DNA of 64,000 bases from Anaerolineae bacterium (GTDB lineage Bacteria; Chloroflexota; Anaerolineae; UBA1429), in contig JAXGNH010000003.1 of assembly GCA_040768165.1 (NCBI GenBank), positions 290,641-354,640 on the forward strand, read 5' to 3'. A program made the position numbers and the translations under genes. The notes beneath the pieces were generated by a model. That model did no database searches. It was not told the origin of the DNA and was given only the letters and a program-made list of their open reading frames with translations. Positions 6,679 to 64,000 of the stretch are shown here, in pieces; position 1 is the stretch's first letter; the number at the start of each line of letters is the position of its first letter.

Positions 6679-6776
6679 CTATCTCTCCTAAGGGCCATCG
6701 CGCCGGCGCATCTGCGTACCCAACGCCAGGATGCGTGTGGAGGCCCGACGCCGTCCGACCCGCCGGCGCGCAACGG

Positions 6777-7063
6777 TGGGCGCACCCTACAGCGCGCGGA
6801 GCGGCCTGTCATGGTAGGGGTCGAACGCCGTTCGACCCGGGCGGCGCGCAGCGGCGTGCGCGCCCTACGATACGCCGAGCGGCCTGGTATGGTAGGGGTC
6901 GAACGCCGTTCGACCCGGGCGGCGCAGCGATCCAAACCCCGGATCGTCGGCGTGCGCGCCCTACGATACGCCGAGCGGCCTGTCATGGTAGGGGTCGAAC
7001 GCTGTTCGACCCGGGCGGCGCGCAGCGATCCAAACCCCGGATCGTCGGCGTGCGCGCCCTACA
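6777..7063. repeat. Tandem array of 96-99-bp repeats (about 3.2 units), each with a 10-bp palindrome GGGTCGAACG/CGTTCGACCC
   Basis: Units start at 6853 and 6949, a partial unit starts at 7048 (GGCGTGCGCGCCCTAC…), and a diverged unit lies at about 6777-6852. Units 2 and 3 are nearly identical. There are no unique spacers. Confidence 0.7.
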
Positions 7064-8099
7064 TGGCGCGTTGGATGGTGGCGCTGGCGCGCTGGGCGGC
7101 CAGCCAATCATCAAAGCCGCGCTGTTGCACCACGGGCCACAGCTCGTCGGGCACGGCCAACGTCGGGTCCACCTCGACGAGCTGGATGACGTGGTAGCCG
7201 AACTCGCTCTGCACGACGTCGCTCACCTCCCCCGGCTGAAGGGCGTAGGCCGCCTCCTCAAAGGCGGGCGGCATGACGCCCTTGGGAAGGAACCCCAAAT
7301 CCCCGCCGCTGTTGCGCGTGGTCTCGTCCTCCGACGTCTCTCGCGCCACGGTGATGAAATTCTCGCCGCCGCGGATGCGCGCCAGCGCCGCCTGCGCCGG
7401 CACCTCGTCCGAGACGAGGATATGGCGCACATGGTACTGCGCGACGTTGCGGGGAATCTGCGCGGTGACCAGATCGCGCACGGCGGCGGTCATCAGGTCG
7501 GCGCGCACCTGACCCCGCAACAGGTCCAGCGTCAGGCCGTTTGCGGTCAGCCAGGCATCAAAGCGGGCGGCGTCGCCCCCGCGCATCTGCGCGATCTGCG
7601 CCTCGATGTCCTCCGGCGTGACACGGATCCCGGCTTCGTGGGCGGCCTGTTCGATGAGCGCCTGATCGATCATCCAGTCCAGCACCTGCTCCTGGACCTG
7701 CCGCAGCGCTTCCTTCCCCGCCTCGGTGGTCAGGTCGGTGCCCGGCTGCTGCAGGAGGTACGCCTGGGCCTGGCCGACCTGTCGCTCCCATTCCTCGCGA
7801 GCGATGGGGGTGCCGTTCACCGTCGCTACCACCCCCGGCTCGAGTGCGGCGGACGCAGAGACCTCCTGGGGCGTTGCCTGCGAGACGGGCACCGGCGGCT
7901 CCGCGGGTGGGGTGTCGGTCCACAGTGGGACCGCCGTGGGCATCTCGGCGGGCGGAGCTACCGTGTCCTGGGGGGCGGCCGGCGCGGCGATAGTCGGCGC
8001 CTCGGCGACGCCGCCTGGCGGCTCCGGCGTGGTGATGGCGCAGCCGGCCAACAGCCAGGCACAGAACAACACGGTGACCACGGCGATCCGTCGTCTCAT
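7059..8099 (-). CDS. Parvulin-type peptidyl-prolyl isomerase lipoprotein (PrsA/SurA-like)
   Basis: MRRRIAVVTVLFCAWLLAGC signal with lipobox, then a SurA_N-like region. PPIC domain: HILV…GGDLGF…GYHVIQL. ATG at 8097-8099. Confidence 0.75.
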   Translation of the reverse strand: MRRRIAVVTVLFCAWLLAGCAITTPEPPGGVAEAPTIAAPAAPQDTVAPPAEMPTAVPLWTDTPPAEPPVPVSQATPQEVSASAALEPGVVATVNGTPIAREEWERQVGQAQAYLLQQPGTDLTTEAGKEALRQVQEQVLDWMIDQALIEQAAHEAGIRVTPEDIEAQIAQMRGGDAARFDAWLTANGLTLDLLRGQVRADLMTAAVRDLVTAQIPRNVAQYHVRHILVSDEVPAQAALARIRGGENFITVARETSEDETTRNSGGDLGFLPKGVMPPAFEEAAYALQPGEVSDVVQSEFGYHVIQLVEVDPTLAVPDELWPVVQQRGFDDWLAAQRASATIQRAM

Positions 8100-8408: not shown

Positions 8409-9776
8409 ATGCGACGTACCACGCTGAACCGACGCATCACGCTCCTCGGCGCCGAGGTGTGGCGCGCCGTGGCATCGCGTCGCCTGGCGATCGTCGTCCT
8501 CGCGGTGGCGTTGGCGGTATCCGTGGCGGGCGTCGTCGCCTCCTCTAGGTTGACCGAGGCGGCGCGCGTGCCCGGGTACTATGGGGTGGCGCCGCCCCTG
8601 GCGATGCCGTGGGGTGAGGGCACGTCGCCGGGCTCGCGGCTGGCTGGGGTGGGGCTGGGGGCCATAGCCGCCCTATCCCTCGTGCGCCTCTTGCAGTCCT
8701 GGGTAGTGGGCTGGGGCGCCACCGCCCCACGGGGGGCGCAGGTGCGTCTCCACGAGGTCCCTTGGGGGGACGAAGAGACCTGGCGAGAGGTCGGCGCCGC
8801 CCTCTCGGCGACCGGGTTACGCCTGGAGAGCACCGGCGCCCGTGGTGACGCCCGGCTGGGGCTGGCGCGTCGGTCGGGCTTGGCCGGCCGCCTGAGCGGG
8901 GCGTTCTACCTCGGCGTGCTGCTGCTCCTGGCGGCGAGCCTCGTGGCGCAAGGGTGGGGGTGGGCCGGAGAGCCGGTGGAACTGGCCCTGGGCGAGACGC
9001 GCGCCTTTGGCGAATACGGCGAGGTGACGGCGCGCCTGGAGCAGATCGAGATCACCCCGACGAGCGACGACGGCATCCCCAGCCTGGCGAGCACGCTTCG
9101 CCTTTCGCGCGAGGGCACTGTGGCCGGCGATGTGCGGGTGAACACGCTGCGGCGGGCGAGCGCCGCGGGACTCGCACTGTATCAGCTCGGGTTTGGGCCG
9201 GCGGCGCGGGTGGCCGCCCGCGGCACGGATGGGGCCGCCCTGCGATTGCAGTCGATGGCACAGGATCCCGAGCCGCGCACTGTGGCGAGGATCAGCTTTT
9301 CCGGCAGGCAGCAGGAGCACCTCCTGGCGCTGCCCGAGGCGAACATGGTGGTGCGCATGGTGCACTATCCCTCGTTGGAGGCGCGGGGGATAGCGGGGCC
9401 TGTGCTGCACGTGCGCGTCGAGCGCGGCATCGACGGCCTGTCGCTGGCGGACGAGTTCCTCACCGAGGGGCGGCAACTCCGCATCAACGGCATCACGCTG
9501 GACATCGATTTCGAGTACTATGTGGTCGTGCGCGCGGCGCGCGAGCCGCACCTCCCGATTGCCGCCCTCGGGGCGACGATGGTGTTGCTGGGCATGATCG
9601 GCTTTGTGGCCTGGCCCGACCGCCGTGTCTGGGTCGCCGTGCGGGCGCGAGAGGGTGCGGAGACGCTGTGCCAGTTCGCGGTGGAGCCGCGCGAGGCGTC
9701 CGCGGGCTGGCTGGCGGGGGTCGAGGCCGTTCTGGTCGAGAGGGCGTGTGGCCGGCGTGATGGCGGGGGGAACTGA
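8409..9776 (+). CDS. Putative cytochrome c biogenesis protein, ResB/Ccs1-like (system II)
   Basis: N-terminal TM, a large extracytoplasmic region, C-terminal TM, immediately upstream of ccsA. The assignment rests mainly on synteny and topology. Confidence 0.5.
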   Translation: MRRTTLNRRITLLGAEVWRAVASRRLAIVVLAVALAVSVAGVVASSRLTEAARVPGYYGVAPPLAMPWGEGTSPGSRLAGVGLGAIAALSLVRLLQSWVVGWGATAPRGAQVRLHEVPWGDEETWREVGAALSATGLRLESTGARGDARLGLARRSGLAGRLSGAFYLGVLLLLAASLVAQGWGWAGEPVELALGETRAFGEYGEVTARLEQIEITPTSDDGIPSLASTLRLSREGTVAGDVRVNTLRRASAAGLALYQLGFGPAARVAARGTDGAALRLQSMAQDPEPRTVARISFSGRQQEHLLALPEANMVVRMVHYPSLEARGIAGPVLHVRVERGIDGLSLADEFLTEGRQLRINGITLDIDFEYYVVVRAAREPHLPIAALGATMVLLGMIGFVAWPDRRVWVAVRAREGAETLCQFAVEPREASAGWLAGVEAVLVERACGRRDGGGN

Positions 9777-15070: not shown

Positions 15071-16201
15071 ATGCGCATCGGAATCGACGGACGCTACATT
15101 CAGGATCACTTTCCCGGCATCGGGCGCTACACCTATCACCTTGCCCGGAACCTGGCGGCCATCGCGCCGGACGATACCTTCTTCCTGTTCGTCGACCCCA
15201 CGGCCGGCAACACGCGCTATGACCTGTCCCCCTTTGTCGAGGCGCCGAACGTCCGGCTGATCCCCGCGACGGTGGGGACCTTTACCTTTCGCCAGCAGAC
15301 GGTCCTCCCCGCCCTGGCGCGGCAGCATCGCCTGGATCTCTACCACAACCCCTACTACCTCGTGCCCTACGCCATGCCGTGCCCCGTGGTGGCCACGCTG
15401 CACGACATGATTCCCATGCTCTATCCGGAATCGGTGCCGGGGGCGGCCCTCCCCACGGTGTTCCTCATGACGGTGCGGCTGACGGTGCTGCGCGCGCGGC
15501 GCATCATCGTCGTGTCCCAATCGACGCGGCGCGACCTCCTGCGCGTGGTGCCCTCTGCCGACGGGAAGGTGGCTGCGGTGCACAATGCCGTGGACGAGGG
15601 GTTTGCGCCGCAGCCCGAGGGGCGCGTGGCGGAGGGGCGGCGGCGCTACGGCCTCGATGCCCCCTACCTGTTCTACCTGGGCGCCAACAAGCCCCACAAG
15701 AACCTGGTGCGCCTTATTGAGGCGTGGGCGACCCTGCCCGACGAGGTGCGCGCCGGCACGGAGCTGGTTCTCGCCGGGCATGAGGACGAGCGTTACCCGC
15801 AGGTGTACGAGACCGTGACGCGGCTGGGGATGCTCAGCGTGCGCCTCCTGGGGGCGGTCCCCGATGATGACCTCGCCCCGCTCTACAGCGGCGCCACCGG
15901 CTTTGTCTTCCCCTCGCTGTACGAGGGGTTCGGCCTGCCCGTGCTCGAGGCGATGGCGTGCGGCGCCCCCGTGGCATGCTCCCACACCTCCTCCCTCCCC
16001 GAGATCGTGGGGAACGCCGCCATCACCTTTGACCCGCACAACGAGGCGGACATGGCCGCCGCCATGCGCCTGCTGCTGGAGGACGCCGAGTTGCGGCAGG
16101 ATCTCGCCGAGGCGGGCCGGCAGCGCGCCGCCCTGTTTACCTGGCGGCGGTCCGCCGAGGAGACTCTGGCGGTGTACCGCGGCGCCGTGGCGGGGCGCTG
16201 A
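15071..16201 (+). CDS. Glycosyltransferase family 4
   Basis: MRIGIDGRYIQ…, EGFGLPVLEAMACGAPVACSHTSSLPEIVG. Confidence 0.8.
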   Translation: MRIGIDGRYIQDHFPGIGRYTYHLARNLAAIAPDDTFFLFVDPTAGNTRYDLSPFVEAPNVRLIPATVGTFTFRQQTVLPALARQHRLDLYHNPYYLVPYAMPCPVVATLHDMIPMLYPESVPGAALPTVFLMTVRLTVLRARRIIVVSQSTRRDLLRVVPSADGKVAAVHNAVDEGFAPQPEGRVAEGRRRYGLDAPYLFYLGANKPHKNLVRLIEAWATLPDEVRAGTELVLAGHEDERYPQVYETVTRLGMLSVRLLGAVPDDDLAPLYSGATGFVFPSLYEGFGLPVLEAMACGAPVACSHTSSLPEIVGNAAITFDPHNEADMAAAMRLLLEDAELRQDLAEAGRQRAALFTWRRSAEETLAVYRGAVAGR

Positions 16202-17361: not shown

Positions 17362-17442
17362 GGTTACAGGTGGCAGGTTGCAGGTTACAGACACTAGCGG
17401 GAACACCCGCTCAAGCCTGTAACCTGCCACCCTGTAACCTGG
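17362..17442 (+). repeat. Heptamer-hairpin repeat element, family A, copy 1
   Basis: GGTTACAGGTGGCAGGTTGCAGGTTACAG, then loop AGCGGGAACACCCGCTCAAGC, then CTGTAACCTGCCACCCTGTAACC. Confidence 0.7.
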
Positions 17443-20881: not shown

Positions 20882-21952
20882 ATGGCGCGCTATCTGCTGA
20901 TCCTCGCCAGCGCCTTTGCCCTCGCGACGATTGCGACGCCGCCGATGCGTCGGCTGGCGGTGCGGCTGGGCATCGTCGACCAGCCCAGTGCCCGCAAGAT
21001 CCACGCGCGCCCTATGCCGCTGATGGGGGGCGTGGTCATCTACCTGGCGTTCATCGCGGCGCTGATCATCTGGGGCGACCGCTTTTACGTGCGCCAGGTG
21101 GTCGGCATCGTGTTGGGCGCCAGCCTCTGCTCGATGCTGGGGCTATGGGACGACCGCCGGAGCATCGGCGCCGGCCTCAAGTTGCTAGGCCAAATCGCGG
21201 CGGCCGTTATTCTCATCATCAGCGGCGTCCAGGTGCAGGTGCTGCCTTACCCGGCGATCAACGTAGCGCTGACGCTCCTCTGGGTGGTGGGTATCACCAA
21301 CGCCATGAACCTGCTGGACAACATGGACGGCCTCTGCGGCGGGGTGGGCGCCATTGCGGCAGCCTTTTTCCTGCTGATGGCCGCCATGAGCGGCCAGTAT
21401 CTGGTGGGCGCGCTGGCGGCGGCGCTGCTGGGGGCGTGTATCGGGTTCTTGGTGTACAATGTCAACCCGGCGTCGATCTTTATGGGGGACGCCGGCAGCC
21501 TCTTTCTGGGGTTCACCCTGGCCGCCGCAGGCATCAAGCTGCGCTTTCCCGACAACGTGGCCTTTGTCACCTGGATGGCGCCGGTGCTGGTGCTGGGGCT
21601 GCCCATCTTTGATACCACGCTGGTGATCATATCGCGGCTGCGGCGCGGGCTGAACCCGCTGACGCATCCTGGCAAGGATCACGTCTCGCACCGCCTGGAG
21701 CGTGGTGGACTGACCCGCCGCGAGGCGGTGCTCACCCTCTATCTCGTGTGCTGCGCGCTGGGCGTGCTGGCGATGTACGTGACGCAGGCGTCCATGGTCG
21801 AGAGCTATCTGGTCGGCGGGGCGGTGTTCGCCGTCGGGGTCTGGCAGCTCTGGCGCCTGGAGGCGGCCTACCGGGCGGGGCGCCCGGACGTTGCCACGCT
21901 CGAGGCGGTGGGGGCGCCGAGCGCCGATGGCGGCGGGCGGTCACGCGACTAA
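20882..21952 (+). CDS. wecA: Undecaprenyl-phosphate N-acetylhexosamine-1-phosphate transferase (WecA/TagO, MraY-like)
   Basis: [36 protein letters not shown]. 10-11 TM helices. Confidence 0.85.
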
Positions 21953-34798: not shown

Positions 34799-34994
34799 GG
34801 CAACCTCACAGTTGACTGGTGGGTGTAGACGGTAGTCGGCTCTCGGCCGTCGGCGGTCAGCCGTCGGCCGATGGCGTCGAGGCCATTCTAGCGGCGGGGG
34901 GAGCGGGCGTCAAAACCGAGTTGCGCCGTCTATCGAACGTTCCACGATGTACACGCTCCTAGGCTATCTCGATGCCATGGGGCGACGGCCGCGC

Positions 34995-38832: not shown

Positions 38833-38876
38833 CGATCGCCGATAGCCGATAGCTCATCCACAGAGGAGCATCCACC

Positions 38877-39737: not shown

Positions 39738-39756
39738 CGCGAAGAGACTCTGACCA

Positions 39757-39826
39757 CGGGCTATTGGCCATTGACTCTTGGCTGTTGGCTGCTAGCCCCG
39801 GCCAAGAGCTAACAGCCAACAGCCCG
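39757..39826. repeat. Heptamer-based inverted-repeat element, family B (GGCTGTT units), upstream of sulfatase
   Basis: CGGGCTATTGGCCATTGACTCTTGGCTGTTGGCTGCTAGC…GCTAACAGCCAACAGCCCG. Confidence 0.6.
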
Positions 39827-39858
39827 TTGAGCGCCCATCACGATAGGAGAGACGAACC

Positions 39859-41325
39859 GTGCCCAACGACCGCCGCCCCAACATCCTCATCGTCATGACC
39901 GACCAGGAGCAGGGGGGAGTGCTCGATCCGGGGCATCCCTGCCGCACGCCCAACGCCGACCGGCTGGCGGCGGAGGGGCTGCGCTTCGACCGCACCTACA
40001 CTACCACGGCCCACTGCTGCCCCTCGCGCGCCACGTTCATGACGGGGCTGTACCCCAGCCACCACGGCATCCATAACAACGTGCTGAACGATGCCGCGCA
40101 GCATGTGTCGCTCAAGCCGGGCGTGACTACCTTTAGCGAGGTGCTGCGCGATGCCGGCTATGCGCTGGGGTTCTCGGGCAAGTGGCACGTCTCGGCTACG
40201 GAGCAGCCCAAGGATCGGGGCTGGGAGCAGTACCATGCCACAGCGATCCAGGGAGAGTGGCACGGGATGCGCTGGGAGCGTTTCCGCGAACTCGCCCGTG
40301 AGTCCGAGTGCGACGCGCCGCGGGGGCGGGGCGAGCTGCTGCGCCCCGGCTGGGGCCGCTACCGCCTGTATGGCACGTCGGAGCCCAACCCCGAGGCGGA
40401 CCCCTTTGTGCCGGGCGACCTCCACACGGTGCAGACGGGGATTCGCGCGCTGGGCGACCTGGCGCGCCAGGACAAGCCCTGGTGTCTCTTCGTGGGGACG
40501 GTGGGGCCGCACGACCCCTATATCATCCCCGAGCACTATGCCACCATGTACGACCCGGCCGACGTAGATCTGCCGCCGAGCTACCACGACACGCTGCTGG
40601 ACAAGCCGCGCATCTACCAGCGGCAGCGGCGCTTTTGGTCGCAGCTGACTGAGGACGAGTATCGCGAGGCGATCGCCCACTATTGGGGCTACTGTACCAT
40701 GCAGGACGATCTGCTGGGGAAGGTGCTCGAGGCGCTGGAGGCTAGCGGCCAGGCCGATGACACGCTGGTGATCTTTTGCTCGGACCACGGCGACTATGCC
40801 GGGGCGCACGGGCTGTTCATGAAGGGTGTGGCGGCATTCGACGAGTGCTACCGCGTCCCGTTCGTGGCGCGCTGGCCGCGCGGCATCGCCCGGCCGGGGC
40901 GGGTGGTGGAAGAGTTCGTCAGCCTGGCGGATTTCGCGCCCACCTTTGCCGATCTGGCGGGCGTCGAGATGCCGGCCACCAGCGGGGGGAGCCTGGTACC
41001 GTTCCTGCGCGACGAGCGCCCCGCCGACTGGCCCGACGCCATGTACAGCCAGTTCAACGGCGTTGAGTTGTACTACAGCCAGCGCTTTGTCCAGACGAAG
41101 GAATGGAAGTACGTCTACAACGGCTTTGACTTTGACGAGCTGTACCACCTGAGCGAGGATCCCCACTGCCTGCGCAACCTGGCGGAGGATCCTCGCTTTC
41201 GGCCCGTCGTCGAGGCGATGTGCCGTCGCATGTGGCGCCGTGGCTACGCGGAGCGCGACATCGACTGCAACCCCTACCCCACGGTGAGTATGGCGCCGTT
41301 CGGGCCGGCGGTGGGGTTGGAATAG
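39859..41325 (+). CDS. Sulfatase (formylglycine-dependent arylsulfatase family)
   Basis: CCPSRATFMTG (C-x-P-x-R FGly motif). N-terminal ILIVMTDQ. 488 aa with a GTG start. Confidence 0.85.
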   Translation: MPNDRRPNILIVMTDQEQGGVLDPGHPCRTPNADRLAAEGLRFDRTYTTTAHCCPSRATFMTGLYPSHHGIHNNVLNDAAQHVSLKPGVTTFSEVLRDAGYALGFSGKWHVSATEQPKDRGWEQYHATAIQGEWHGMRWERFRELARESECDAPRGRGELLRPGWGRYRLYGTSEPNPEADPFVPGDLHTVQTGIRALGDLARQDKPWCLFVGTVGPHDPYIIPEHYATMYDPADVDLPPSYHDTLLDKPRIYQRQRRFWSQLTEDEYREAIAHYWGYCTMQDDLLGKVLEALEASGQADDTLVIFCSDHGDYAGAHGLFMKGVAAFDECYRVPFVARWPRGIARPGRVVEEFVSLADFAPTFADLAGVEMPATSGGSLVPFLRDERPADWPDAMYSQFNGVELYYSQRFVQTKEWKYVYNGFDFDELYHLSEDPHCLRNLAEDPRFRPVVEAMCRRMWRRGYAERDIDCNPYPTVSMAPFGPAVGLE

Positions 41326-41507
41326 CTGTCGGCGGTCGGCGGTCAGCTGTCAGCTGACGGGCTGTTGGCTGTGAGCATTTGGCTCGACCTGCCTTCCTCG
41401 AGGAGTCCAACGGCCAAGAGCCAAGCGCCAACCGCTAATAGCCAACACCCCGCCAACTGACGACTGATCACTGACAACTGACAGCCGACAGCCGACAGCT
41501 GACCGCC
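41324..41507. repeat. Composite family-B inverted repeat (GTCGGCG/GTCAGCT heptamers outside, GGCTGTT/GCCAAGAG units inside), downstream of sulfatase
   Basis: AGCTGTCGGCGGTCGGCGGTCAGCTGTCAGCTGAC … GGCTGTTGGCTG … GCCAAGAGCCAAGCGCCAACCGCTAATAGCCAACAC … CTGACAACTGACAGCCGACAGCCGACAGCTGACCGCC. Confidence 0.6.
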
Positions 41508-46654: not shown

Positions 46655-46907
46655 CGGGCGCGGACGACACACTGGCCACGGCACTGCGGCCCGACGCGGG
46701 GGCCGCGGGAGCGGCGTCGCCCGTCCAGTCATGAGACGCGATTGACGACGCGGCCTCGTGACCCTATACTCGCCGCTGCTTCAGGGCGGCCTGAAAGGCC
46801 CGCCGTAACGCGTAGACTCTTCGCGGAGATTGGATCGACTAGCAGTGGGAATGCATCAACCCCCAGGAGGACGCTGACGCCGCGCCCGGCGTAGCTGGGC
46901 ACGGCGC

Positions 46908-46968
46908 CTCGAACAGGGTGCTTCAGGCCATTGACGTCGCGTCAACGGCCTGAAGCACCCTGTTCGAG
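46908..46968. repeat. 28-bp near-perfect inverted repeat (1 mismatch) in a 660-bp intergenic region
   Basis: CTCGAACAGGGTGCTTCAGGCCATTGAC-gtcgc-GTCAACGGCCTGAAGCACCCTGTTCGAG. Confidence 0.6.
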
Positions 46969-47316
46969 ACCCCGCTGGACCGGGGCCGGGTACAACGGCC
47001 CGTCCCGGCACGACCACGCCCGTACGGGGTGCGGGGACTGCGACGTTGAGCCCTCGTACCCGAATGCCCGCACCCGTCGGTACCTGCGCTTTCGGGGCAT
47101 CCGCGTGATGATCCCCGGCGCAAGCCGCCCCACCGAAGGCGCTTCGGCCAGGCCACCTGATTGGGTGCCTCGTCGGCCGGCTGAGGCGGCCCAATCGTGT
47201 TGCTGCGCCCGACGTAGAGCGCGGCGCGAGCCAACCGAACGCGTGGGTGGCGGGCGTCGGCTACTCGCCTGGTTGATCATACTTTGGAGAGACTCTCCAC
47301 CACAGGCTGCGTGCAT

Positions 47317-48657: not shown

Positions 48658-48742
48658 GGTATCAGGTTGCAGGTTCCAGGTTACAGGCCCCGGTGACGCC
48701 ACACGCTCAAGCCTGTAACCCGCAACCTGCAACCTGCAACTC
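48658..48742 (+). repeat. Heptamer-hairpin repeat element, family A, copy 3
   Basis: CAGGTTGCAGGTTCCAGGTTACAGGCC, then loop …CACGCTCAAGC, then CTGTAACCCGCAACCTGCAACCTGCAAC. Confidence 0.65.
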
Positions 48743-48821
48743 CATAGCCGCTTGGATGTTGACAATGCACCCCTGCGGCGCTATAATTGAGTGAGCGCTC
48801 AAGTATACGAGGTGGGGTCTC

Positions 48822-51456: not shown

Positions 51457-51544
51457 TGGTTACAGGTGACAGGTGGCAGGTTACAGGCTCAAGTGTGCTC
51501 ACTCGCTCAAGCCTGTAACCTGCCACCTGGAACCTGCTACAGCC
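51457..51544 (+). repeat. Heptamer-hairpin repeat element, family A, copy 4
   Basis: CTGGTTACAGGTGACAGGTGGCAGGTTACAGGCTC, then loop …CTCGCTCAAGC, then CTGTAACCTGCCACCTGGAACCTGCTACAG. Confidence 0.65.
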
Positions 51545-51585
51545 CCTCGATTCGGCTCGTAACCCGTAACTCGGAACCCGCCCAG

Positions 51586-53671: not shown

Positions 53672-53752
53672 ACAACCCCTCAACGGTGCTGTCCGCCCGA
53701 GAGGCTGACTTGACGCTGCCCCGGGCTCTGCATAGGATGGCTGAAGCAACTC

Positions 53753-53823: not shown

Positions 53824-53910
53824 AGGTCACAGGTTCCGGGTGACAAGTTACAGGCTTTAGCGGGTGAACACCCTGAAGATTGCGGCTTGTCCCCTGGAAC
53901 CTGTAACGCG
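53824..53910 (+). repeat. Heptamer-hairpin repeat element, family A, copy 5 (diverged)
   Basis: AGGTCACAGGTTCCGGGTGACAAGTTACAGGC, then loop …AGCGGGTGAACACCCTGAAG…, then CTGGAACCTGTAACG. Confidence 0.55.
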
Positions 53911-60702: not shown

Positions 60703-61044
60703 GTGGGCTTGTGCCACGGCGAAAGTGTTGCGGCGATCGGCGATGTCGAGACAGGATCGCGCCAGTCACCTCCTTCCCTGGAGGATGACAAGCCGGCGGC
60801 GCGCCACCATCGGGCGCGCCGTTGCACACACAAGGAGACGACGACCCGCACCAGATGGGGGAGGTCGCCGTCGAACCACCGGCATTCTAGCACAGGACGG
60901 GGAAAAGTGGAAACAGGCGCGAGGGCCAACGACCAGCAGCTGCCCCCTCCCGACGGTGCCTTCGCGGCGAATCTGGTCGGCCCGAGGGTTGCTGCTGAGC
61001 ACCCTCGGGCGGGGGGCGACGCCGGTATGCGCTCTTCGGATCAC

Positions 61045-61073
61045 TTGACGCTGTCTCCAAGCGGTCCTATCCT
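61045..61073 (+). promoter_or_regulatory. Candidate promoter TTGACG-17-TATCCT upstream of the Gfo/Idh/MocA gene
   Basis: The spacing is exact, the -10 element is weak, and it lies 45 nt upstream of the RBS GAAGGAG. Confidence 0.3.
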
Positions 61074-61117
61074 ACACCGGCATCTCGGAACACCATGAAC
61101 GAGAAGGAGAGCCCACG

Positions 61118-62197
61118 ATGAGCGGAACACTGCGCGCAGGTATCATCGGCGCCGGCTTTATCACGGTTCGCGGGCACGTTCCCGGTTACCGGGCCACCGG
61201 GTGCGTGGATGTCGCGGCACTGTGCGACGTGAACGAGCAGCGCGCGCGGACGGTGGCTCAGGAACTCGGCATCCCGCGTGTCTACACCAACTATCGCGCC
61301 ATGCTGTCCGGGGAGGATCTGGACATCGTCAGCGTGTGCAGCCCCAACTGCTTCCACGCCCAGATGACCATCGACGCCCTGACGGCGGGCGCGCACGTTC
61401 TATGTGAGAAGCCCATGGCGCTCGCGTATGCCGATGCCTGCAGCATGATCGAGACGGCGCGAACGACGGGCCGCTCCCTGACGGTGGGCTTTCACAACCG
61501 CTTCCGGCCCGACATGGCCGCCGCCAAGGCGATCATCGACGAGGGCGTACTCGGCGATATCTACTATGTGCGCGCCAGCATGCTGCGGCGCAAGGGGATC
61601 CCGGGGTACGGGAGCTGGTTCACGAACAAGGACCTGGCCGGCGGCGGGGCGCTAATGGATATCGGCTGCCACATCACCGACCTGGCGCTGTGGTTCATGG
61701 GGCATCCCCAGCCCAAGACGGTGGTTGGCGCCATCTATGCCAATTTCGGGCCGCGCGGCAAGGGCCTGGGGACGTGGGGCTCCGATCACTATCCCGTGGG
61801 CGCGCGCTTTGACGTGGACGACCTCGCCACGGCGATGGTGCGGTTCGAGAGCGGCGCGACGTTGGCCGTGGAGGCCAGCTGGGCGGGGCATGGTACCGAT
61901 GGCCAGCGTATCCAGGTGTTCGGCACCGAGGGGGGCGTCGAGTACAACGACAGGCTGTTCGGCTCCGAGAGCCCGGTGCGCTACTTTTCCGAGAACGGCG
62001 GCGAGCTGCGAGAGGAGCCCGTCGACGTGCTCAAGGTGAGCCGGACGGCGTACGAGAGTGAGGTGGTGGATTGGGTGCAGCGGCTCAAGGACGGGCGGCC
62101 CCCGTACACGACCCCGGAGCAGGCGGCCGTGGCCGTGCAGATCATCGAGGCGGTGTACAAATCGGCGGCGACGGGCCGAGAAGTGGTCCTTTCTTGA
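61118..62197 (+). CDS. Gfo/Idh/MocA-family oxidoreductase
   Basis: LRAGIIGAGFI Rossmann motif, EKPMA. RBS GAAGGAG 7 nt upstream. Confidence 0.8.
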   Translation: MSGTLRAGIIGAGFITVRGHVPGYRATGCVDVAALCDVNEQRARTVAQELGIPRVYTNYRAMLSGEDLDIVSVCSPNCFHAQMTIDALTAGAHVLCEKPMALAYADACSMIETARTTGRSLTVGFHNRFRPDMAAAKAIIDEGVLGDIYYVRASMLRRKGIPGYGSWFTNKDLAGGGALMDIGCHITDLALWFMGHPQPKTVVGAIYANFGPRGKGLGTWGSDHYPVGARFDVDDLATAMVRFESGATLAVEASWAGHGTDGQRIQVFGTEGGVEYNDRLFGSESPVRYFSENGGELREEPVDVLKVSRTAYESEVVDWVQRLKDGRPPYTTPEQAAVAVQIIEAVYKSAATGREVVLS

Positions 62198-62252
62198 TCT
62201 CTGCGGTGCGCCGGGGACGATCGCCCGGGCACCCACAGCTCTAGTGACGCGG

Positions 62253-62290
62253 ACAGGGGAGCCATGCCGGCTCCCCTGTTGCTTTTCGGG
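62253..62290 (+). terminator. Rho-independent terminator
   Basis: ACAGGGGAGCC-atgcc-GGCTCCCCTGT followed by TGCTTTTCGGG. Confidence 0.6.
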
Positions 62291-62595
62291 CGCTGTCGAG
62301 GTGGAAGCGGGCCTGCCGCGGCGCCCGGTCGCCGATGGCCCCCGTGAGTGGGTTGGCGACGCACCCTGCTCCCTCCCTCTCGGCCGCCGACTGGTCCTGT
62401 TGCTGCTGTTATTCGGCGCCGCGGCGGAAATCTGCCTGTCTGATGGCTTTTGTGGGGCTCTAGGCCGTTCAGCAGCAGCACCCCGGTTACTTTCATTACG
62501 ACTGTAGGTAGCCCTTCACTTTGTGTCCATAGTCACAACGAGGGCCATGGTCTGCCCCTCTTTCTTATACCCTACTCTATGTCCGGCTTTAATCG

Positions 62596-62624
62596 TTGAC
62601 TTGTTTCAGGTTTTACTGTATAAT
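62596..62624 (+). promoter_or_regulatory. Near-consensus sigma70 promoter TTGACT-17-TATAAT
   Basis: TTGACT at 62596-62601, a 17-nt spacer, TATAAT at 62619-62624. It drives an about 180-nt leader and then the HTH gene. Confidence 0.5.
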
Positions 62625-62812
62625 GCTATCGGGGTAGTTGGTACGGCCAGGGTTCACTTGAGGCAAAGCATCGTCGTGGCCGTGTGTTGTGCCATCTTGG
62701 CGGCCATGCGCGTGATGCCGGACTCGAGTGGGCAGCGACGACAGCAGCGCCTTTTTTGTGATTCCCGGCTCGGGTCGGGCCAACGAACGCACTACTAGTG
62801 GGGGGGAGTTCG

Positions 62813-63022
62813 ATGAGTTCAGAGACGCTTCTCAACGTCAAGCAGGTGGCGCAGTACTTGCAGCTGAAGGAATCCACCATCTACTCGTGGGCCCAGGATG
62901 GCAAGATCCCGGCCATCAAAATCGGGCGCACCTGGCGATTTCGTCGCTCGGATCTCGACTCGTGGTTGGAGCGACACCTGAAGGGCGAGGAAGACCTGAT
63001 CGAGGAATCGGAGCAGGCCTAG
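62813..63022 (+). CDS. Small helix-turn-helix DNA-binding protein, excisionase/MerR-like (HTH_17) family
   Basis: 69 aa: LLNVKQVAQYLQLKESTIYSWAQDGKIPAIKIGRTWRFRRSDLDSWL. RBS GGGGGAG. Confidence 0.6.
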   Translation: MSSETLLNVKQVAQYLQLKESTIYSWAQDGKIPAIKIGRTWRFRRSDLDSWLERHLKGEEDLIEESEQA

Positions 63023-63207
63023 TCCGCACCGGCGGGTTGGGTAGACAGGGAAGGGGGGTGGCGGGCCGCCGCGCTGGCGCGTCCCCTCCTTTCTTTCCTA
63101 TCTGGCATCCGGGCCGATTCCCACGGGTCTTCCCGAGGCGAGTCCGACGGGACGGCGTGCTTCCGCGCGGAGGCCTGTGAGAGGGGCCGCCGGCGTCCAC
63201 ACCTGCG

Positions 63208-63236
63208 TTGACGGCCGCTTTCACCGGCGCTACAAT
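63208..63236 (+). promoter_or_regulatory. Candidate promoter TTGACG-17-TACAAT for glycerate kinase
   Basis: The spacing is exact and the -10 element is good. It lies about 55 nt upstream of ATG 63293. Confidence 0.4.
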
Positions 63237-63292
63237 CCACATCGGCTCGGCCTTGCGCGCCCCGCGCTATCCCCACGAGAGGTGGCTCCGGC

Positions 63293-64000
63293 ATGGTGAG
63301 TTTCGCTCCGGCGGTCTATGACCGCGCCGGCCGCGATGGTGAGCGCCGGCTGCAGATCGTCCAGGTGCTCCAGGCGGCGCTCGATGCCGTCGATCCGGCC
63401 GCGGCGGTGAGGCGCCACGTGCAGCGCTGCGACGCGCAGCTACGGGTCGGCGGGATGGTCTATGACCTGGACGCCTACCGGCGCGTGCTGGTGGTTGGCG
63501 CCGGCAAGGCGGGCGCCCCCATGGCGCAGGCCGTGGAGGAGATCCTGGGCGACCGCATCGCCGCCGGGCAGGTCAACGTCAAGTACGGCCACGTCGCCCC
63601 GACGCGAACGGTGATCCTCACCGAGGCGGGGCACCCGATCCCCGACGAGGCCGGCGTGGCGGGCGCTCGGGCCATCGCGGCGCTCCTCGAGGAGGCGCGC
63701 GAGGATGACCTGGTGGTGTGCCTCATCTCGGGCGGCGGATCGGCGCTCATGACGTTGCCCGTGGACGGGGTGTCGCTGACGGACATGAAGGCGCTCACCG
63801 ATGCCCTGCTACGGCGCGCCGCCACCATCAATGAGATCAACGCCATCCGCAAGCACCTCGACCAGTTGAAGGGCGGCAACCTCGCTCGTCTGGCCCACCC
63901 GGCGCGCGTGGTGTCGCTGCTGCTCTCGGATGTGGTGGGCAATCCCCTGGATGTCATCGCCTCCGGGCCCACGGTCCCCGACACCAGCACCTTTGCCGAC
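63293..64000 (+). CDS. Glycerate 2-kinase (MOFRL family), 5' part; 3' end outside window
   Basis: VVGAGKAG, CLISGGGSAL, NEINAIRKHLDQLKGG. No stop before the window end. Confidence 0.8.
   Translation, partial: MVSFAPAVYDRAGRDGERRLQIVQVLQAALDAVDPAAAVRRHVQRCDAQLRVGGMVYDLDAYRRVLVVGAGKAGAPMAQAVEEILGDRIAAGQVNVKYGHVAPTRTVILTEAGHPIPDEAGVAGARAIAALLEEAREDDLVVCLISGGGSALMTLPVDGVSLTDMKALTDALLRRAATINEINAIRKHLDQLKGGNLARLAHPARVVSLLLSDVVGNPLDVIASGPTVPDTSTFAD

Follow-up and report, generated by a model that had tools for sequence, protein, structure and literature searches.

A 64,000-nucleotide stretch of the genome of an Anaerolineae bacterium (contig JAXGNH010000003.1, positions 290,641 to 354,640; the whole stretch is called the window below) carries six dispersed copies of a long, imperfect hairpin built from tandem 7-bp units. 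Each unit joins a constant pentamer, CAGGT, to a variable dinucleotide (CAGGTNN), and the six copies form a subfamily, specific to their lineage, within a class of such hairpins that spans at least 3 phyla: Chloroflexota, Acidobacteriota, and Bacteroidota. Genome comparisons show the elements staying at fixed intergenic sites while they rapidly gain and lose 7-bp units, replace one unit type by another, and turn over their loops, with both arms of one hairpin still drawing on the same unit types. We give an even chance to the reading that these are slippage-driven hairpin repeats of the short tandemly repeated repetitive (STRR) type, located in 3′ intergenic space and probably acting as 3′-end hairpins, a function that we infer from position and precedent.

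Architecture of the hairpins and of the class to which they belong

The preliminary description of this DNA had listed six copies of a dispersed family of imperfect hairpins with an unusual heptamer periodicity. All six were found when the loci were read, and their dispersal, fold, and periodicity were borne out by Tandem Repeats Finder, a lag scan, and folding. In every copy, 3 to 4 tandem GGTNNCA units make up the 5′ arm and complementary TGNNACC units the 3′ arm, on either side of a central segment. The copies and the two features that adjoin them are listed here without an assigned strand; bit scores refer to a covariance model (R1) that was built from an alignment of the copies (A5).

17362 to 17442: copy 1; −57.7 kcal/mol, z −8.4; 68 bits
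28978 to 29053: copy 2; −50.2 kcal/mol, z −8.2; 71 bits
28935 to 29096: outer hairpin around copy 2, a hairpin within a hairpin; −91.6 kcal/mol, z −5.9
48658 to 48742: copy 3; −48 kcal/mol, z −6.5
51457 to 51544: copy 4; −63.1 kcal/mol, z −8.7; 84.5 bits
51558 to 51580: unpaired CGYAACC array, directly 3′ of copy 4
53824 to 53910: copy 5; −48 kcal/mol, z −5.3; 61 bits
55740 to 55829: copy 6; −56.3 kcal/mol, z −6.3; 64 bits

Tandem Repeats Finder reported period-7 arrays on both arms, and in a window autocorrelation lag 7 was the sole enriched short period, with 9 regions of at least 17/21 matches against 0 to 2 for each other lag between 4 and 12. Folding gave long hairpins for all six copies (−48 to −63 kcal/mol, z −5.3 to −8.7), and none of 200 shuffles folded equally well. 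When the window was searched with model R1, exactly these six were recovered, at 61 to 85 bits; the next-best match, and the only, weak extra, was 46911–46970 at 28 bits.

Common to the six copies are one conserved inner unit and the apex CAGGTTACAGGC...CGCTCRAGCCTGTAACCTGC. The motif GCTCRAGCCTGTRACC has 5 exact matches in the window, all on the + strand, and 8 matches with up to 2 mismatches, against 0.22 expected; none of 100 shuffles reached 8. Copies 1 and 2 carry the apex motif on the + strand as GCTCAAGCC and GCTCGAGCC, respectively, while in copy 5, which is degenerate, the motif is not on the + strand. The segment GCTCRAGCC had previously been taken for a loop motif, but it is stem, namely the 3′ strand of an extension at the apex (GGCTCNAG...CTNGAGCC), and the actual terminal loops are short. 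In the strain represented by contig L025, this extension is a perfect 10-bp stem, GGCTCTAGCG/CGCTAGAGCC. The apical stem is nearly a palindrome, which is why 3 copies match the motif on the − strand as well, with 1 to 2 mismatches. Its 3′ side (CGCTCRAGCC) is nevertheless clearly better conserved than the 5′ partner. The motif had been said to keep to one strand whatever the direction of the flanking genes, and this holds for all 5 clear copies, including one that is flanked by genes on the − strand; with p ~0.06 and all copies from one 40-kb stretch, however, the bias is statistically weak and cannot establish a rule.

Hairpins of the same design were sought with a pattern scan of metagenomes that required 2 canonical CAGGTNN-type units on each side of a gap of 8 to 38 nt. 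At least 120 metagenome stretches match this pattern, and among the matches listed (80 loci), GC content ranges from 37% to 72% and the samples include soil, sediment, peat, bioreactor, and aquatic material. One locus belongs to Blastocatellia (Acidobacteriota), with flanking proteins 89% identical to proteins of named metagenome-assembled genomes, and another to Niastella (Bacteroidota), with flanking proteins 98% to 100% identical. The cultured strain Niastella koreensis GR20-10, for which a complete genome is available, has such a hairpin after metE (at about CP003178.1:6833793–6833854), followed by UUUUCUUAU. The window itself has a GC content of ~68%, and the nearest named relatives of its tyrosyl-tRNA synthetase are Anaerolineae/Chloroflexota proteins, at ~70% to 75% identity. 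Hairpins of this wider class score 25 to 56 bits with the model made from the window copies. Their commonest units are GGTGTCA and GGTTTCA, and individual lineages have shared apices of their own, as in loci L091, L103, and L109 or in L031 and L099.

Two further leads were set aside. The apex motif GCTCRAGCCTGTRACCTGC gave 23 single matches in a genome collection, all in unrelated taxa, and these are attributed to chance because none has heptamer arms. A polarity rule, by which the CAGGT arm lies 5′ of the ACCTG arm, was followed in the window and, by 71 to 0, among selected loci; it was dropped after an unbiased scan of viral contigs, which contained 1 such hairpin and 2 with the opposite arrangement.

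Several loci of the wider class show features of their own. The N. koreensis sequence (L151, CP003178.1) contains further period-7 arrays, of CGTGAAA (1488–1521), GTAGTGA (15641–15680), GCTTGCG (15801–15828), and AACCTTA (21627–21659); since these share 22 kb with the CAGGTNN hairpin, several heptamer families coexist there too. In locus L105, two CAGGTNN hairpins (8856–8922 and 9093–9166) are located in the C-terminal third of an open 1262-aa open reading frame (ORF) with an Eco57I-like methylase domain. This ORF stands beside the BREX gene brxC and is probably pglX. Unless this ORF is spurious or a variable region, hairpins of this class can occur within coding DNA. Three low-GC loci (41% to 45%; L037, L041, and L056) have hairpins with shared flanks, TTTTTGAGCGAAAGC ... 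AAAAAGTCTTGGATAGCAATTAA, and represent either a larger repeated element or one locus in related strains.

Turnover at fixed sites and position relative to genes

The window was compared with six contigs of the same species (98% to 99% nucleotide identity) and with a sister species (L030, ~86%), which together cover 40.4 to 63.9 kb of it. No other sequence varies as much within the species as the elements: in 5 of the 6 contigs, they differ by 4% to 13%, against 0.7% to 1.2% for coding sequence, and other intergenic DNA differs by 0.5% to 4% among the same contigs. The changes come unit by unit. The 3′ arm of copy 6 is one 7-bp unit longer in the window strain than in four other strains, and the CGYAACC array beside copy 4 differs among strains by 14 bp, or two units. 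The loop of copy 4 has been replaced wholesale by an alternative loop in some strain sequence. In the arms of the same copy, the strains hold all four pairings of 5′ GGTGACA or GGTTCCA with 3′ TGGAACC or TGTCACC, two of which are fully paired and two mixed. Such a four-way pattern is expected from recombination of two compensated alleles, or from copying between the arms.

A comparison with related genomes, which the preliminary description had proposed, found 3 of the 4 checked sites (51457, 53824, and 55740) kept in the sister species, with altered outer units. At 53824, the sister species has a more canonical hairpin than the window and a compensatory C-G to T-A change, and at 48658, only remnants are left. 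As the hairpins are kept at their sites and vary unit by unit, they are old residents that turn over quickly in place. The Niastella hairpin after metE likewise differs in unit order and loop between two relatives whose NrdA proteins are 98% identical. The two arms also resemble each other in composition: across the wider class, 66.6% of the positions in their variable dinucleotides match within a hairpin, against 46.9% between hairpins.

Two further differences were seen in these alignments. The tract 61006–63801 is only ~87% identical to L024 1–2758 and L026 1–2641, contigs of the same species that are otherwise ~98.5% identical to the window, which points to recombination or import in the region of the HTH_17/MOFRL genes. 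Beside the orthologue of copy 6, the sister species has a ~64-nt hairpin of another family (CTCCCACCTCCCGAAGGCCCCCC...GGGGGGCCTTCGGGAGGTG; L030 ~7870–7940) that is absent from the window species.

All six copies are intergenic between called genes, and 5 of them lie behind at least one gene end. Copy 1 starts 20 nt past the stop codon of a GT4 glycosyltransferase gene and ends ~80 nt ahead of the next gene, both on the + strand. Copy 2 lies between the stop of a PfkB-family gene and the start of Dus, both on the − strand, and forms the inner part of the outer hairpin, whose arms derive from a second heptamer family (GTTRTGC / GCRYAAC). Copy 3 lies 49 nt past the stop of an MFS transporter gene in a same-direction (+,+) gap. 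Just downstream is the promoter of an operon of an arsR-like gene and a P-type ATPase gene, a perfect sigma-70 consensus (TTGACA-17-TATAAT, 48759–48787) that is conserved in the sister species. Copies 4 and 6 occupy convergent gaps, between the stops of the P-type ATPase gene and of a gene for a 204-aa protein, and between those of a Mem_trans gene and an ABC permease gene, respectively. Copy 5, in the divergent gap between tyrS (−) and a TauE-family gene (+), is the sole copy that is not behind a gene end.

The wider class has a similar placement, as judged from the crude longest-ORF calls in the metagenome loci on which most tests of the class depend and in which the positions of stop codons are exact. 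In same-direction gaps (n = 38), the hairpin starts a median of 10.5 nt past the upstream stop, lies nearer to that stop in 28 of 38 cases, and leaves at least 55 nt between its end and the first possible start of the next gene. The classes of gene context as such are near background, with 10% of hairpins in divergent gaps against 19%. A 3- to 4-fold excess of A/T runs flanking the hairpins of mid-GC contigs, obtained in a first pass, failed an orientation test and was discarded.

Relation to known repeats and competing explanations

Among described elements, the closest kind is the STRR family, which the preliminary description had not named. The classic STRR units are CCCCAGT, TTGGTCA, and CAACAGT, and their hypervariability between strains has been exploited for STRR-PCR fingerprinting. 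In filamentous cyanobacteria, these 7-bp repeats form intergenic hairpins, for example at hupS-hupL; their function is unknown, and the roles proposed for the hairpins are transcript stabilization, translational coupling, and pausing or termination (PMC2670836). The elements described here have in common with STRRs the tandem 7-bp intergenic units, the inverted arrays that give long hairpins, the presence of several unit families per genome, and the variation among strains, in the form of 7- and 14-bp insertions and deletions and unit swaps. They differ in the CAGGTNN units themselves, with their constant pentamer and variable dinucleotide, in the lineage-specific conserved apex, in a ~68% GC Chloroflexota host rather than a heterocystous cyanobacterium, and in the recurrence of the CAGGTNN core in Acidobacteriota and Bacteroidota. 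Because units and host differ, the hairpins are STRR-like but stand outside the named families (STRR1–3).

Likeness to other repeats is more partial. Repetitive extragenic palindromic (REP) elements and the related BIMEs and REPINs are also abundant, imperfect extragenic palindromes that lie mostly behind gene ends, often within ~15 nt of the stop. Like the present elements, they have a short tag that is conserved across taxa, and they are tolerated or used as 3′-end stabilizers of mRNA (PMC3733652, PMC3116915). REPs are, however, single palindromes of 20 to 40 bp with a terminal GTAG/CGTC tag and without 7-bp periodicity, whereas the hairpins here measure 80 to 90 bp and have no such tag; REPs are also linked to RAYT transposases, and no RAYT was found among the window ORFs scanned. 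The TAACTGA repeats of Beggiatoaceae, cyanobacteria, and some Bacteroidetes are likewise intergenic heptamer arrays with a patchy distribution across phyla, but almost all are direct repeats just upstream of start codons, with one inverted set, in contrast to the inverted pairs behind stops seen here (PMC4679880). The arrays of Geobacter metallireducens, compared by description, are alike in being multicopy, mostly paired sets of 4 to 5 tandem 7- to 8-nt units that are drawn as looping-back strands; their consensus sequences (MTYCTGA, GGACCGG, and GTTGCTYN) are different, and they are read as protein sites, some of them intragenic (PMC2700814). Intrinsic terminators share the stable hairpin just past the stop, and the N. 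koreensis copy also has UUUUCUUAU, yet the stems here are far longer (25 to 35 bp), and a U-tract is missing from the window copies and from most hairpins of the wider class.

Under the STRR-type reading, replication slippage in 7-nt steps would add or remove units, together with copying or recombination between arms and between alleles, and the hairpin would be retained because the constant pentamers always pair. Transcription of the upstream gene would then give the message a 25- to 35-bp RNA hairpin at its 3′ end, which may hinder 3′ exonucleases, terminate transcription without a U-tract, or do both, as do enterobacterial REP/BIME elements and, by proposal, STRR hairpins. In favor of such a role, the hairpins lie just behind stops, and no canonical terminator of hairpin and U-tract was detected at the gene ends that precede the window copies.

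How far the pairing itself is selected bears directly on this reading. The statement that structure rather than sequence is conserved turned out to be at best weakly supported, as the sequence of the inner stem, CAGGTTACAGG / CCTGTAACCTG, hardly varies. Over a 24-bp helix of the family alignment, pairing holds in 85% of cells, and the inner ten pairs are almost invariant. Judged from this alignment, pairing is real and is carried mainly by sequence conservation, through the constant CAGGT/ACCTG and the one conserved inner unit.

A number of results weigh against this reading, first of all against a role at the RNA level. Covariation in the family alignment is modest, with 5 pairs changed on both sides and a score that 4 of 500 shuffles reach. 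Among 85 wider-class hairpins, the order of units is not tuned between the arms: 261 positions are paired, against 256 after shuffling, and the mean minimum free energy is −41.6 kcal/mol for the real hairpins and −41.3 kcal/mol for permuted unit orders (p = 0.87). In a comparison of G-U pairs with A-C mismatches, sense-strand RNA shows no gain in stability over the antisense strand, with 21 versus 21 hairpins and 60 versus 78 G-U pairs. A terminator scan flags none of the window copies. In the wider class, U-tracts beside the stem are not consistent, T-runs being infrequent and not oriented with the upstream gene; the copy of N. koreensis, with its UUUUCUUAU, is an exception. Taken together, the results on U-tracts, RNA strand, unit order, and covariation give no positive sign of selection on RNA. 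Copy 5 lies in a divergent promoter region. Furthermore, slippage alone cannot explain an apex and an inner unit that are shared by six loci, so that dispersal or concerted evolution is needed, and a CAGGT core that recurs in three phyla points to recognition by a factor for which the STRR-type reading has no name. The shared apex and the CAGGT core thus keep both a mobile element and a factor of this kind alive as explanations.

Mobility is the strongest of the alternatives, though an unlikely one. The hairpins would be non-autonomous mobile elements, comparable to REPINs, to miniature inverted-repeat transposable elements (MITEs), or to the small dispersed repeats of cyanobacteria: an enzyme encoded elsewhere would recognize the CAGGT-phased arms or the apex and copy a small seed hairpin, made of the apex and the inner unit, into new intergenic positions, the arrays would then expand locally, and any effect on the host would be incidental. 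In line with this, the six loci share the ~20-nt one-sided motif CGCTCRAGCCTGTAACCTGC, whose conservation is one of sequence and not of pairing, since its 5′ partner is often not complementary. The position of the motif on the same DNA strand in the five clear copies, irrespective of gene direction, the lineage-specific apices elsewhere, the hairpins nested in hairpins, the fold without an RNA-strand signature, and the presence of the 48658 hairpin in a place where the sister species has only remnants all point in the same direction, and a short tag that crosses phyla recalls the GTAG tag of REPs that is read by RAYT transposases (PMC3733652, PMC3116915). The strand argument is limited by its p of ~0.06 in a single stretch, however, and the 48658 site is too diverged from the sister species to define a clean insertion boundary or a target duplication. 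Terminal repeats beyond the arms were not seen, and target-site duplications were not systematically searched. The ~46 window ORFs that were scanned against Pfam are housekeeping or envelope genes; no transposase, RAYT, or integrase is among them, and no insertion sequence (IS) elements were found in the window. With 3 of 4 sites orthologous at 86% identity, mobility is low at best, and several unrelated heptamer families in one genome are not explained by a single sequence-specific enzyme. The earlier label "REP/MITE-like" can accordingly be kept for its first half, with regard to location, while the lack of a transposase among the scanned ORFs and the sites kept in the sister species leave the second without evidence.

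Two known kinds of mobile DNA were considered as matches and set aside. Integron attC sites were rejected as the units GTTACAG/CTGTAAC do not fit the core RYYYAAC...GTTRRRY, no integrase is present, and the copies are flanked by housekeeping genes in both orientations. TTAC and TCAA, which recall attC or IS200/IS605-type ends, do occur in the core, yet the motif varies (TCGA, TAGA, TGAA) and no such gene context is found. A literal literature search for the unit sequences returned no bacterial description, which is weak evidence of novelty as such sequences are rarely printed in main text. The only matches, to the unit GGTTACA, were papers on fission-yeast telomeres (it is the telomere unit of Schizosaccharomyces pombe) and are taken as coincidence.

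The three remaining explanations are less likely. It is rather doubtful that the hairpins are neutral by-products of slippage and inverted duplication that persist where they are harmless, at the 3′ ends of genes. Hypervariability fits this explanation, as do the missing U-tract, strand signature, and unit-order compensation; tolerance alone would give a 3′ bias, and the gene contexts are only mildly off background (divergent gaps 10% versus 19%). Persistence of sites at 86% identity with the long hairpin kept speaks against neutrality, as do the same CAGGT core in three phyla, the apex conserved among paralogous copies, and the two paired and two mixed alleles at 51457, which suggest that pairing has been restored.

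More improbable still are arrays of binding sites in double-stranded DNA for a regulator or a nucleoid-associated protein, in which each 7-bp unit would be one site, with five bases read and a two-base spacer, inverted arrays would suit a multimer, and the hairpin would be irrelevant. The constant-five, variable-two design of the unit would fit such sites, and so would arms with unmatched unit order and no RNA-strand bias. There is also precedent, in that inverted heptanucleotide pairs of G. metallireducens are annotated as putative sites of global regulators (PMC2700814), and heptamer repeats affect promoter use in Nostoc (bioRxiv 10.1101/2022.06.06.494920). However, the arrays are found mostly behind stops and in convergent gaps instead of at promoters, the number and identity of their units vary among strains, which would be odd for a tuned regulatory site, there are several unit families per genome, and the compensatory changes at 51457 and 53824 preserve pairing.

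Independent small-RNA genes or cis-regulatory RNA leaders are very improbable: the structure is stable, and copy 5 lies between a promoter-like site (53710–53738) and the TauE-family gene, where it could be part of a 5′ untranslated region, but no pair of promoter and terminator brackets the copies, their sequence is nearly strand-symmetric, most lie behind stop codons, and the variability among strains is extreme for a functional RNA. A search with Rfam, one of the checks that had been proposed, found no family at gathering thresholds in the window and none on the hairpins of 17 related loci, and below threshold the elements matched only a mir-587 hairpin model, which is spurious. The suggestion that the elements encode a small RNA thus found no evidence in its favor.

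Other repeats in the window and wider meaning

Heptamer repeats of the window are not limited to CAGGTNN units. Two more hairpins, likewise without an assigned strand, were detected:

39756 to 39827: hairpin of the same architecture, units GGCTNTT / AANAGCC; −44 kcal/mol, z −5.6
41323 to 41507: nested double hairpin; −94.7 kcal/mol, z −7.3

The first lies between two + strand genes, ~19 nt past the upstream stop. The second fills a convergent gap between the stops of a sulfatase gene and a URO-D-like gene; its outer arms consist of GCKGTCR / YGACMGC units, including CAACTGA, and its inner arms of GGCTGTT units. In the sister species, the inner hairpin is kept, and the expanded outer arrays are not. 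Additional period-7 arrays were found at 34835–34870, 38833–38853, and 51558–51580.

The 3′ outer arm of the nested hairpin (41454–41503) includes CAACTGA, CGACTGA, and TCACTGA units, and CAACTGA is one base away from TAACTGA (PMC4679880). The array at 38833–38853 is a short run of CGATAGC heptamers straight after a stop codon. It is preceded by GCGATCGC, which is the octamer of the cyanobacterial HIP1 palindrome. At 46902–46974, in the gap between an SMP-30/gluconolactonase-like gene and the MFS transporter gene, there is a near-perfect hairpin of ~29 to 35 bp (−61 kcal/mol, z −9.3; 28 bits with model R1) that has no heptamer periodicity and is also present in strain contig L025. A different repeat family occupies 6748–7062, in a 600-bp gap upstream of a SurA/PPIase-like gene; it has tandem periods of 78 and 96 bp (86% to 95% matches) and three copies of the palindrome GGGTCGAACGCCGTTCGACCC.

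Why bacterial genomes accumulate 7-bp tandem repeats, and what purpose these serve, has been a standing question since the STRRs of cyanobacteria were described around 1990. What is new here is the occurrence of one unit design (CAGGT plus a dinucleotide) in hairpin form in at least three phyla outside the classic STRR hosts, and the turnover of whole units between strains at unchanged gene ends. The presence of such a hairpin in the cultured and completely sequenced N. koreensis GR20-10 offers a handle for studying termination, mRNA stability, protein binding, and slippage rates. In metagenome-assembled genomes, strain variation, and probably also assembly breakage, is concentrated at these elements, and in high-GC genomes they create spurious ORFs.

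It is also conceivable, if doubtful, that the CAGGT-phased hairpin is the footprint of a hypothetical machine that is shared across phyla, either an enzyme for writing, copying, or moving 7-nt units or a protein whose reading of nucleic acid follows a 7-nt register. If so, this machine would be active in Chloroflexota, Acidobacteriota, and Bacteroidota, and it could also lie behind the STRR and TAACTGA arrays found in cyanobacteria and Beggiatoaceae. Its recognition site, on one particular DNA strand, would in that case be the one-sided apex motif that keeps to the same strand in this window. The significance of these hairpins would rise if their cross-phylum CAGGT phasing reflects such a specific machine.

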